From NCBI RefSeq assembly GCF_030013205.1, contig NZ_CP122648.1: a stretch of 64,000 bases of DNA; one strand, written 5' to 3'. Origin of the DNA: Escherichia coli (GTDB lineage Bacteria > Pseudomonadota > Gammaproteobacteria > Enterobacterales > Enterobacteriaceae). The position numbers were made by a program. Below, in pieces: positions 1 through 6,000 of this stretch (positions are counted from its first letter, which is position 1; every line of letters starts with the position of its first letter).

Positions 1-3000
1 ATTCATCATAGTGGTAAACATAGTGCGCATCCTTCGCGATGCGGTTATCCGGCCACGCCGTGAGTGTACTGTCCGGGTGCAGCTCCGGGTCCGGCAGCCG
101 GTTGCCCGCCGGGTCCGTGGCATACGGGATGCGGATGTCCAGGTCCGGTGCGAGGGTGCGCACGCTCTCCAGCCTGCCCGTGGCACTGTAGCCGTATTCC
201 CGCGTCTGTCGCGGGCCGCTGATGCGCTCCAGGTCGCCGTTGTCATTCCACCCGTAGTCACGGTCATACACCAGGCTGTTCAGGTGCTGACTCTGTAACT
301 GACCTGCGGGGGTGTATGTGCTGGTCAGTTCATATGCGGCATTACTGCCTGCCATGCTGCCGAAGCTGCGCACCGTCTCACGGTGCAACCTGTCCCGCGT
401 ATACTCGACCAGCGGCGTCCCGCCCAGCTTCATTCCCGCCAGGTAACCGCTGCCATACGTCAGCCACTCCACCGGCGGCAGGCTGTCCGGCGTGACGCGG
501 TTTGCCAGCCCCTGCTCGTTGTATGCGTGTTTCGTCTCATGCTGCCACAGCAGTTCCCCCGTCTCCGGGTTCTCCACCGTCTGGCGCTCCCCGGTCAGAC
601 GGCCTTTATCGTCATAGCCGTAGTGGACCGCCACACGGTGGCCTTCGCTCAGGTGGCTGATTTCTCTCAGCCAGCCGTGGCCATCATACTGCCACTGCTC
701 TGCCGGTTCGCCGTTCACCGTGCGGTGAGTGAGGCGGTCCGATTCGTCGTAGTGCCAGAGGGTGACAAGCCCCTCATCTTCACTCTGCGTGAGTTTTCCG
801 GTCAGGTCATAGTGGTAACGTTGCGTCCGCCCGTCAAAGCCGCGCTGCTGTACCAGCCGGTCCAGCGCATCGTAGCTGAAGTCGCTGTGACTGCCGTTCT
901 CGTTGGTCAGGCTGATGACACGTCCTGCCGCGTCATACTCCATACTGCGCGTCAGCCCGCCCTGCGTGGTGCTGACCGCCTTTCCCCACGCATCGTACTG
1001 TGTCTCGCTCCGGTTGCCGTCCGGGGTGATAACGGCAGTCAGGTCGCCTGCGGCGTTGTATTCATACCGCGTTTCACGGCCCTGTGCGTCTTTCACCGAG
1101 GTTAACCGGCCACGGTTGTCATAGCGGCGGTAAAGGCTGATGCCATCCTCACGGTGGACCGCCGTCATCTGACCAAAGCGGTCGTATTCATAGCGGGTCT
1201 GGTAGCCCGAGCAGTCGGTGAACGCCAGCAACTGACCGTAGCGGCTCCAGGTCATCTGCCGGGTGCTGCCCGTCGCATCTGTTGTCGTGGCCGGTAATTC
1301 ACTGTGCGGATTATCATAAGCATACCGGATGACGTCCCCACTGCGCGATGTCTCCGATACCAGCCTGTCCCGCTCATCATACGCCCGGCGGCTCTCCAGC
1401 CCGTCCGGGTACACCACCGCCGTCACCAGGTTCCCGTCGTTATAGTAAAATTTCGTCTCCCGCCCGTCCGGCGTGGTGATGTCCGTGATGTCGCCTGACA
1501 CCACATTCAGACCGTACTCTGTCCGCCGTCCCACCGCGTCCGTCTGCGCCGTAAGCCGCCCCACCGGGTCATACCCGCTGCGCGTGACGCTGCCGTCCGC
1601 CAGTTCTTTTTTCACCACCCGCTTCAGCCCGGCCCCGCCTTCTGTATGCAGCACCTCACGCCGGTTCAGGCTGTCCGTGACGGTGATGCGGTCCTGCTCA
1701 TACTGGTAGCGGTAACTCAGGCCTGCCGGGTTCAGCTGCTCCACCACCCGCCCCGCATCGTCGTAGCGGTAGCGCATCTCCGGCCTTCCCGCGTAACGGT
1801 GCGCCACCATCCGGCCCGGGTGCTGCGCGTCATACGTGAAAGCGCGCACCTGCGTATTGCTGCGGTCATATACCGCCAGCAGTTCACCGGCTTCCGTATA
1901 CGTGTACCGCACCAGTGGCGCACCGGGCAGGCTCTCCGGGTATGCCGGGTCGTGCATCAGCCACACCGCCGAAAGACGGATGCCCCTGTCGGGGCCGTAT
2001 TCGGTACCGGGCAGTGTGTCGGGGAACGCTGAGGCTGAGAGAGGGCGGGAACGGTCAGAAGAAGATAGCGAAGAGGTGCGGGCCTCTTCCGCACGCTGCG
2101 CCTGCGTGGTCAGCACCAGACGGAACTCCCGCCCGGCACCGTCCGTCACGCCGGTGATTTCCCCGGCCAGGTCACCGGCGGCCTCACGCCGGTACGTCAG
2201 CGTCCGCCCGAAGCGGTCCGCCAGCCCGGTAAGCACCCGGTACGGCGGCAGCGGCGCTGGCAGTACGTCCTCAGCACCCGGCACCCGCTCTGACCACCCC
2301 AGTATCCACCACGGTCCCTGTGCGCTGTTGGTCGCCAGGTAAAGATGCGGGCTTAACCGGATATCCGGCGGCAGCGCCCCCCACAGCCGCGCCAGCGTGT
2401 GGCCGTCCGGCTGCGTTGCCTTACCGCCACGCACCAGCCACAGGGACTCGCTGCGGCTGTACACCGCCTCCCCCGGCAGCAGCGGCTCAAAGTGAATGCT
2501 CCGTCCGCCGTTGTCGTTGAGTACCAGTGCATCATCGCGTATCTGTAAGCGGATATCAGAAGGCGCTTTCCAGCCGGGGCCAAAAATTCCCACCGGCGCA
2601 GGCGTCTTCGTCCGGTAGCTGCTGTAGGTGCGGGAGAGAATGAACGGCAGCGGGCCGGGCAGCGCAAGGTCCGTCTCGCCGGGCAGCACCTTCGCCCCCA
2701 GCAGCGGATTTACCGGGTTGCCCGAAGTCATCCTGCCCGGACACACCGAGCACGCCACGCCGGTGGGCGCGCCAATTCTTACACCTGCCGAACCCTGGAC
2801 AATGGGACCGCCATACTGAGTCATATCTCCCTGACGCGCCGCTGGTTTTCCGCTCATATAAAGTGCCCTTTTAGTTATTGTTCATATCCCTGTGTTAGCA
2901 ACAAAAAAATAAAATGACACACAAGACCAGCTAATGTATTTATATATTTTTCACATAAACTTATTTGTTCTCAATCAACAACAACTGTTATTACAGGTCA

Positions 3001-6000
3001 CTTTCAATATTTTATTAAACTAACATTTTTAGCACAGATGAATTCATCATCAACAAATTCACTATATGGATAATATCCATTCAACGCATATGGTTTATGA
3101 TTTTATTAGTCTGAGTTATTTTTGTAGGGCTATATTTAAAATTATTAAACTCCACCGATTCAGATTAATATCAGCAATAGAAAGATAGGAAATCACCAAT
3201 TCAATAACATCATCAATGAAACATATTGTAGAATTAATTTAAACAAGGCGTTCCATTCAACCAGAACGCCCCTTATTTACTCTCATCACCCCGCAAACTG
3301 CCTGAACAGCGCCTTACCCTTAACCAGCCGCGCGCCCAGCCAGCCGCCGAAAAGCGACAGCAGCAGTGCACCGCTGCACGGCAGCACAATCCACAATCGG
3401 CAGTCTGGCTCCCACGGGAAATCAAACACTTTCGCCTGCAACACTGCCAGCGCCGTTTCCGCACCAATTGCGGCCACCAGGCCAGAAACAAACCCGAGCA
3501 TGGCGAACTCACACCACAACGTGGTACGCAGCAGTTTTTTCCCCGCACCGAGTGTGCGCCACACCACCAGCTCCTGATGACGCTGACGCATTCCCACCTG
3601 CACCTGTGCCAGCAACAGCAACATACCGCAGGCGGTGACCAGCACCACCATCACCTCCAGCGCCCGACTTACCTGCTCCAGCACCTGACCGACCTGTTTT
3701 AAAATCGCGCCAATGTCTAACAGGCTAATGGTAGGGAACTGGCGGTTGAGTTGCGTCAACATGCCGTTGCCATTCTCCCAGCGGAAACTGGTAAGCCAGC
3801 TCTGCGGTTGCCCGTCTAATGCCCCTTCTGGGAAAATAAAATAGAAATTAGGCCGCAGACTTTCCCAGTCCACTTTGCGCAGGCTGGTCACTTTAGCGCG
3901 GAACTCCTGGGTATCGCCCATAAAGGTGACTGTATCGCCGAGGCCAACGTTTAAGCGTTTCGCCAGCCCCTCTTCCATCGACACTTCATCGGCTTTTGGC
4001 GGCCAGTTACCGGCGACAATCGGATTATGATCGGGCCGCGTATTTTGCCAGGTAAGATTGAGTTCGCGGTTAAGCGCCTCATCTTCATTGCCTTCTGTCG
4101 GCTTGTCGTTAATCGCCGTCAGTCGCGCCCGCACCACCGGATAAAATGATTCCGGGACTATCTGATGTTCCGCGAGGAACGTTTTTAGCGGCGTAACCTG
4201 TTCTGTGGCGATGTTGATTAAAAAGTAGTTCGGGCTTTCTGGCGGTAGCTGCTGTTGCCAGCGGTCGAGCAGATCGCCACGCAATACCAGCAATAGCGCC
4301 AGCAGCATAAAGGAGAGCGAAAATGCCGAAAGCTGGCTTAACGTTGACCACGGCTGACGTAACAGGCGGCTAACCGCCAGGCGCAGAGGCAGCGATTTCA
4401 GCGTCATGCGGCGAAGTACATTCAGCAGCATCCAGCCCAGCACACCGCACAGCAAAGCCAGTACTACCGCGCCCGCCAGCACCGCCCAGAGCAGCATACT
4501 GCCACCCATTAATCCGGCGAGCAGCAGCACAACCACCACACTGACAATCGGCAGATAAAACTTCAGCGGCCAGACGTTCGCGACCACATCATTACGTAAT
4601 ACGCGTAAAGGCTGCGTTGCCAGTAACAAGCGGTATGGTCGTAGCCCCACCAGCAGCGAGATAACCGTCATGGTGCCCAGCGCCCATAGCCACGGCCAGA
4701 GGCTGGCTGGCGGTAGTGCAGCAGGCAGAACGGGCTTGAGCAGCACCATCAACACGTTTTCGAACAACAGGCCTATCGCCCCACCGGTAACGGCTGAAAG
4801 CGTCAGCACCATCAACCACTGACCGACGATTAGCTTACGCAGTTGCGCTCGCCCTGCCCCCAGCGTTTTGAGGATCGCCACCAGATCGTAGCGACTGCGA
4901 CAGTAATGATTCATCGCTACCGCCACCGCTGCCACTGCCAGCAGCAAGGTCAGAAGCGCCGAAAGCAGCAGGAACTGTTGCGAGCGTTCCATCGATCGCC
5001 CCAGCGCACCTTCGTCCTGTTCCAGACCGTACCAGCGTTGTTCGGGTTTAAGCTGAGGTAACAACCATTTCTCATAGCTGTCGAGCTGGTTCTCGTTGCC
5101 GCCGAATTTATAGCGCCAGGTGACCCGACTTCCCGGCAGCACGGCTCCGGTTTTATCGACATCCGCCAGATTCATCATCAGACGCGGAGCCATCTGGAAG
5201 GGGTTAAAACCGGAATCCGGTTCCTGAATCACTTCTCCGGCAATCCGCAAGGTGGCATCACCCACGTCGATGGTGTCGCCTGTTTTCAGGTTAAGCAGTG
5301 CCATCAGGCGTGGGGCCAGCAATACGCTGCCTGCCTGCGGTTTCAGGCCAGGGGGATTAGTTTGCAGATCGCCATACATCGGGTAGATATCATCCACCGC
5401 TTTGACGTTCGCCAGCTGCGGTGTGTCGCCTGCAAATGTCATGGTGGCGAAAGTCAGCTGCTTGCCGACTTTCAGGCCGCGCTTTTGCGCTTCCTCCAGC
5501 CACGCTTGCGGCACTTCGCGTGAACTGCGCAACGCCCGATCGCCCGCCATAAACTCCCGGCTTTGCTGGCTTAAGCCCTTCTCCATGCGATCGCTGATAT
5601 TGCCCAGCACCAGCACGCAGGCCACCGCCAGGCTTAGCGCCAGCCAGACAATTAATAGCGACGGCGAGCGCCATTCGCGCCAGAACCAACGTGCAATCAT
5701 GCTTCCTCCTGCAACTGCCCGTTCATCAGCCGTAAGCAGCGGTCGCAGCGTGCCGCCAGTTGCAGGTCGTGGGTCACCATAATCAACGTGGTGCCATGTT
5801 CACGGTTGAGGGAAAACAGCAGGTCGGCAATTTTATCGCCCGTCTGGCGGTCAAGGTTGCCGGTGGGTTCGTCGGCAAACAGCACATCAGGCCGACCATT
5901 AAAAGCTCGCGCCAGCGCCACTCGTTGCTGTTCGCCGCCGGAAAGCTGTGCCGGAAGATGATCAAGACGTTTACCCAGCCCTAACTGTTCGAGCAACGCT

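Follow-up and report, generated by a model that had tools for sequence, protein, structure and literature searches.

Which element does an Escherichia coli Rhs gene belong to when only its 5' part is in view, and does the conspicuously AT-rich DNA lying ahead of it come from that element or from the chromosome around it? The question is raised by the beginning of a stretch of 64,000 nucleotides of E. coli contig NZ_CP122648.1 (assembly GCF_030013205.1), which was analysed as a whole and is referred to below as the window. Its first bases run, in order of position, through the 5' part of an Rhs gene read on the minus strand, an AT-rich leader and the gene ybbP. In our view this is very probably the left half of the classical rhsD island, in which an island-borne leader, silenced by H-NS and equipped with its own promoter or promoters, precedes the gene of an Rhs polymorphic toxin.

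Base for base, the window is identical to positions 3734701-3798700 of NZ_CP122643.1 (100% over 64,000), from E. coli ETEC4079 (ETEC, enterotoxigenic E. coli), a porcine isolate, and because of this identity ETEC4079 was used to stand in for the sequence beyond the window edge. The gene order is ybbA-ybbP-rhs-immunity open reading frame (ORF)-ylbI-ylbG-mnmH, with ybbA and ybbP inside the window and the part past rhs, as far as mnmH on the other side, read in ETEC4079. The flanking ybbP (3286..5700, minus strand) encodes an FtsX-type permease of 804 amino acids (aa) and, according to Pfam, RefSeq and junction comparison, belongs to the core genome outside the element; its GC content is 57.7%, that of the whole window 55.5%. 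What is seen here is the classical rhsD locus of E. coli, whose accessory island measures about 6.1 kb and is flanked by ybbP and mnmH (ybbB/selU). The interval from ybbA to ybbB is rhs 'position 3' in Table 3 of Jackson et al. 2009 (PMC2935791), where it is given as conserved and among the better-occupied clade I sites. Compared with the rhsD element of E. coli K-12 (b0497 with ybbC, ylbH, ybbD, ylbI and ylbG), the island occupies the same site between the same flanks and carries the same downstream relics, ylbI and ylbG. Its Rhs core shares 94% aa identity with K-12 RhsD up to the DPxGL motif, and its leader matches the ybbP-rhsD spacer of K-12 at 98.8% identity, differing from it by three substitutions and two bases in a T run. 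Both the Rhs locus and the leader are already known and represent nothing new in kind.

Within positions 1..3000 the sole long open frame is on the minus strand, where 960 codons stay open. The gene starts with the ATG at 2857, nine codons downstream of an in-frame TGA, and is truncated by the window edge at base 1, so that 952 codons of it (1..2857, minus strand; 1400 aa in full) are inside the window. A preliminary description of this DNA had placed the start of the window inside an Rhs element and put the N-terminal part in view at about 950 codons, and both statements are borne out by the open frame and by the family matches. Against the NCBIfam equivalog RHS_core (NF041261) the fragment reaches 2047 bits, with a cut-off of 2000 bits, and it aligns to model positions 1-955 out of 1261; Pfam recognizes RHS_repeat in 10 stretches (E 2.7e-73) together with DUF6531, the YD repeat model TIGR01643 is matched as well, and RefSeq annotates the gene at 1..2857 as 'RHS element core protein'. 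The gene, ETEC4079's allele of rhsD, codes for an RHS core protein of clade I, and the part seen here has a GC content of 64.4% (77% at third codon positions). The first 45 codons (MSGKPAARQGDMTQYGG..., 2723..2857, minus strand), a start common to rhsA, rhsB and rhsC, are PAAR-like according to a Pfam PAAR_motif match that stays below the cut-off (E 0.051); in K-12 the first 60 nt of rhsA, B, C and D are nearly identical. They are followed by the DUF6531 domain (aa 46-123; 2489..2722, minus strand; PF20148, 68.5 bits, cut-off 24.1), and the top-scoring of the 10 RHS/YD repeat stretches, recognized by Pfam and NCBIfam, spans aa 579-615 (1013..1123, minus strand).

The toxin tip and the immunity gene had been described as out of view and recoverable by extending the sequence upstream; both indeed lie past window position 1, and the identical ETEC4079 genome supplied them. 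There the full-length rhs codes for 1400 aa, with the Rhs-associated core domain at aa 1181-1258 (TIGR03696; Pfam RHS PF03527) ending in ...PVNGIDPLGL. After the DPLGL motif comes an AT-rich tip of 142 aa (GC 35%), and an ORF of 163 aa (GC 34.5%) overlaps the rhs stop codon, in the usual place of an immunity gene. This putative immunity ORF matches 'hypothetical protein' models only, and the only resemblance of the tip, to serum amyloid A, stays below threshold (Pfam E 0.005; PDB sequence search E 0.18), as likewise reported in silico for RhsD of strain EDL933 (PMC7216683). The PADLOC defence models gave no match to the Rhs protein or to the immunity ORF.

It is in this part that the island differs from its K-12 counterpart. 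K-12 RhsD has 1426 aa and another tip, with ybbC as immunity gene, whereas the tip and putative immunity ORF of ETEC4079 (L001 13318-14218) match not the rhsD/ybbC tip but the orphan pair ylbH/ybbD, and are thus present in K-12 only as displaced orphans, of which ybbD is frameshifted. What is an orphan tip in one strain is in another the tip of a full-length rhs gene. The match fits the C-terminal displacement described by Jackson et al., by which K-12 would have gained a new tip and the older one would have been pushed downstream; alternatively, the present strain may have lost the K-12 tip through recombination between core repeats. At the right end of the island the ylbI region (L001 14585-14679) holds 95 nt left over from a second Rhs start region, with AT-rich DNA ahead of it. 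This relic is 78% identical to the true Rhs start, its ATG having become ATT, suggesting that a second rhs gene was once present or that island assembly left its mark here.

The leader (2858..3285, minus strand) forms the left end of the island and is exactly 428 bp long, as ybbP ends at 3286 and the rhs ATG lies at 2857. Its GC content of 28.5% is the lowest of any 428-bp stretch in the window (0.01 percentile), and the switch in composition coincides with the rhs start codon. The contrast that had been noted between a very AT-rich leader of some 430 bp and the GC-rich core is therefore real (28.5% against 64.4% GC). The word leader itself stands insofar as this is a true non-coding spacer, and needs refinement insofar as the first 40 or so bases make up a hairpin of ybbP, the plausible terminator described next, while the remainder has been described before as a promoter region bound by H-NS. 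The hairpin, with an 11-bp stem and a T-tail, lies directly behind ybbP (3245..3272, minus strand); the stretch from 3272 to 3245 folds with -16.1 kcal/mol (z = -3.9), and 0 of 200 shuffles were as stable. The hairpin, which could plausibly serve ybbAP as an intrinsic terminator, came with the island; strains with an empty site have repetitive extragenic palindromic (REP) sequences in its place. The remaining 386 bp or so have a GC content of 26%. Close to the gene, the sequence AAGGG (2866..2870, minus strand) resembles a Shine-Dalgarno element 8 nt before the ATG. In an alignment of eight strains, selected so as to cover the range of identities, a T run at 2903..2909 (minus strand) is of variable length: five strains have T8, K-12 and strain 6883 have T9, and the present sequence has T7.

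To which side of the junction the leader belongs is answered by the genomes that have no Rhs gene at this site. As the leader always adjoins ybbP and nowhere else, it might be taken for an ancestral core-genome spacer, with only the GC-rich gene inserted next to it. Junction alignments contradict that reading: in Rhs-free strains homology is lost 3-6 bp after the ybbP stop codon, and REP elements, a dinQ-like module or an Hcp-toxin island are found there instead; the right boundary is about 10 bp after the mnmH stop. A search of the genomes without the leader agrees, with ybbP homology ending 3-10 bases past the stop codon. The leader is moreover contiguous with the 5' end of rhs in 2858 of the 2906 genomes that carry it. 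We regard an ancestral spacer as extremely improbable; since the similarity to Rhs-free strains breaks off 3-6 bp beyond the ybbP stop, the whole leader belongs to the inserted Rhs island. Those 2906 genomes represent about 54% of the 5426 complete E. coli genomes searched, and the leader hardly varies among them, its identity being at least 95% in all but one. The leader is present in a median of 1 copy per genome and never more than 2, the Rhs coding part in a median of 4 places.

The slot between ybbP and mnmH is multi-allelic (junction at 3280..3290; L003 8416-9127, L004 8416-13312, L005 8416-8555). The empty site, as in BH100 and Nissle 1917, is a REP-containing spacer of 140 bp, found bare in roughly 400 genomes; this number was obtained by subtraction, as the empty-site count of 1723 probably includes dinQ sites. 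A module of about 700 bp annotated as dinQ (type I toxin) occupies the slot in 1315 genomes at a coverage of at least 80%, a gene for an Hcp(TssD)-toxin with four DUF2931 genes in 574 genomes, and in one strain the slot shows an IS1-mediated deletion. Two unrelated islands for type VI secretion system (T6SS) effectors, Rhs and Hcp-toxin, alternate here. Together with the full-length allele bearing the K-12 orphan tip, the alternating slot is of modest value for studies of how E. coli swaps its competition weapons at fixed chromosomal sites. A repeat search of the island found no flanking direct or inverted repeats that would mark a mobile element, only the 95-nt duplicate of the Rhs start (ylbI) and echoes of the YD repeats.

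For the function of the leader, published work on K-12 is the main source. In genomic SELEX (systematic evolution of ligands by exponential enrichment), an in vitro method, Shimada et al. 2014 (PMC3946193) found the ybbP>rhsD spacer among the sites of the RpoD holoenzyme, with an H-NS flag, and the promoter predicted there is TTAATA-17-TGTAAT. An exact match to this 29-mer, the predicted sigma-70 promoter of rhsD in K-12, lies at 2990..3018 (minus strand) and is invariant in the eight strains. A second promoter-like site, TTGAGA-17-AAAAAT (2946..2974, minus strand), is a consensus match only and overlaps an AT box at 2937..2953. The spacer also appears as '522099_304 ybbP(+)/rhsD(+)' in Table 1 of Panyukov and Ozoline 2013 (PMC3661553), as one of 78 'promoter islands' associated with foreign genes. 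According to the same source, RNA polymerase binds to such islands and open complexes form there, but very little transcript results; this particular one was bound by H-NS in all the chromatin immunoprecipitation (ChIP) studies compared there. The leader shares the association with horizontally acquired DNA, lying as it does inside a variable island. When an offset of 776 bp, which we take to separate U00096.2 from U00096.3, is applied, the approximate equivalent of island 522099_304 falls at 2938..3241, a conversion good to a few bases only. No structural difference from the K-12 promoter island and RpoD site was seen, TTAATA-17-TGTAAT being intact; the binding and expression data are those of K-12, not of the ETEC strain. 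Beyond correct annotation the locus matters little, as it consists of a known polymorphic-toxin gene cut by the window edge and an AT-rich stretch that is a known H-NS-bound regulatory region. Neither needs to be treated as a discovery.

Taken as the left half of the rhsD island, the parts could work together as follows. The terminator hairpin at the start of the leader would close the ybbAP operon, and the leader would then supply the rhs gene with its own promoter or promoters, some 80-135 nt ahead of the ATG. As with other AT-rich DNA gained by horizontal transfer, H-NS would keep them silent, and rhs would be expressed only on relief. By analogy with PAAR-Rhs effectors, the PAAR-like N-terminal end may mount the Rhs protein on the type VI secretion spike; the YD-repeat shell would enclose the C-terminal toxin, autocleavage at DPxGL would free it, and the overlapping downstream ORF would protect the producer cell. 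With the structurally characterised T6SS PAAR-Rhs effectors RhsA of Pseudomonas protegens (PMC8765631) and Rhs1 of Photorhabdus (PMC8636562), the protein shares the YD-repeat shell, the core domain ending in DPxGL, the polymorphic C-terminal tip, here a putative toxin, and the adjacent gene, here one of putative immunity. In contrast to these, the present rhs is an orphan with no vgrG, Eag chaperone or T6SS gene beside it, it has an AT-rich leader of its own, and its PAAR match is sub-threshold.

Several points weigh against this scheme. Relaxed promoter-like matches on the rhs strand number 5 in the leader, compared with a mean of 0.83 per 428-bp window (top 1.1%), but this is not above dinucleotide-matched shuffles of the leader itself, with a mean of 7.3, and a stricter sigma-70 scan gave 1 match where shuffles gave 1.7. 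By these counts the dense promoter-like signal, and with it the 'promoter island' property, would follow from AT-rich composition alone. Nor is the high-affinity H-NS motif TCGATAAATT enriched, a single match with 2 mismatches being present in the leader; binding of H-NS is supported by the published K-12 ChIP studies and by AT-richness, not by the motif. The case for a regulatory role of the leader in this ETEC strain is drawn from K-12 experiments and from composition. The low diversity of the leader, detailed below, may equally mean that parts of the island have spread recently by recombination, an explanation favoured by the first 92 bp of rhs being invariant as well, though eight sequences cannot decide the matter. 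As for the protein, its PAAR match lies below threshold, no T6SS or vgrG gene adjoins rhs, and to our knowledge K-12 is without a type VI system.

The promoter scans, with no more matches than expected from composition, are also what a functionless AT-rich filler would give, with rhs either permanently silent or read through from ybbAP. The very low output of promoter islands on published arrays, as given in PMC3661553, points in the same direction. Such a filler is at odds with the strong hairpin terminator between ybbP and the leader, with the binding of RNA polymerase holoenzyme to the K-12 spacer in vitro (PMC3946193) and with the low sequence diversity of the leader, and we hold it to be unlikely.

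That diversity was assessed in the eight-strain alignment. In the 428 bp of the leader, 7 sites vary by single nucleotide substitutions and 3 columns by indels. Variable sites number 15 in the last 300 bp of ybbP, 14 falling on third codon positions, and 24 in the first 300 bp of rhs, whose first 92 bp are invariant. Compared with third codon positions in the neighbouring part of ybbP (3286..3585), variability in the leader (2858..3285) is several-fold lower. Divergence from K-12 is mosaic along the island and its flank, ranging from 0.7% to 4.9% of substitutions: 0.7% in the leader, 0.8% in the non-coding stretch after the immunity ORF, 3% at the 3' end of ybbP, and, compared with ylbH/ybbD at the nucleotide level, 4.2% in the tip and 4.9% in the immunity ORF. 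The low variability of the leader may come from purifying selection on AT-rich regulatory DNA.

It would also be explained if the leader hid an unannotated functional element, be it a small RNA, a structured switch in the 5' untranslated region (UTR) or a small protein. Two features speak for such an element: the variability of the leader is several-fold below that of synonymous ybbP sites, and its length is twice that of the rhsA, B and C leaders. What was looked for does not: Rfam gave no match at E <= 1 over positions 1..6000, the putative 5' UTR (2983..2840) folds no better than its shuffles (z = -0.5), and the leader has no internal terminator-like site apart from the one behind ybbP. Seven small ORFs of 20-40 aa lie wholly inside the leader and none exceeds 40 aa; they code for low-complexity, AT-coded peptides, none of them convincing. 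A hidden element is accordingly quite improbable. It is likewise doubtful that the leader is a selected, co-inherited cassette of silencing and conditional promoter, or the carrier of an unrecognised regulatory RNA; if this were true, it would account both for the low variability and for the double length relative to other rhs leaders.

The leaders of rhsA, rhsB and rhsC in K-12 are also AT-biased non-coding spacers placed before an almost identical gene start (ATGAGCGGAAAACC...). They differ from the rhsD leader in being half as long (202-242 bp), with a GC content of 35-37%, and they are not homologous to it except for a 17-nt AT box in rhsC; those of rhsA and rhsC share 116 bp at 94% with each other. 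The AT box TGAAAAATATATAAATA, at 2937..2953 in the window, is identical in 16 of 17 positions to the box upstream of K-12 rhsC. Related versions precede rhsA and rhsB. The box sits 80-125 nt ahead of the ATG, in leaders that are otherwise non-homologous, and could be a shared -10 region or the site of a regulator.

Two exact-pattern scans of the leader across 100,044 species-representative genomes gave no match, in a collection that holds one genome per species and whose E. coli representative may be among the roughly 46% without the leader. In a plasmid collection four matches were found, two of them in records of chromosome size (1.3 and 4.8 Mb). Another is partial (query bases 1-205, 98.5%) and lies in a 129-kb E. 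coli plasmid. In NZ_CP069916.1, a record of 19 kb labelled as a Klebsiella oxytoca plasmid, the leader is present at 98.8% identity as a K-12-like allele, which is probably contamination or mis-assembly of the public record.

Farther along the window, the DNA between ybbJ and cueR (11901..14322) forms another very AT-rich patch, with a GC content of about 30% at 12044..12812. It carries a hypothetical ORF, a gene for a YadA-family autotransporter adhesin and two small hypothetical ORFs, and it looks like another accessory insertion. Between cueR and ybaT a large island for a type I secretion adhesin extends over 14730..39186, with genes for an HlyD adaptor, an ATP-binding cassette (ABC) permease/ATPase and a TolC-family protein. 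It includes a gene of about 16.5 kb with immunoglobulin (Ig)-like repeats, annotated as a pseudogene (18068..34597), a BapA-related siiEA gene (34498..37722) and an AT-rich patch at 39020..39640. A gene for an IS200C transposase is located between rsmS and mscK (62922..63380).

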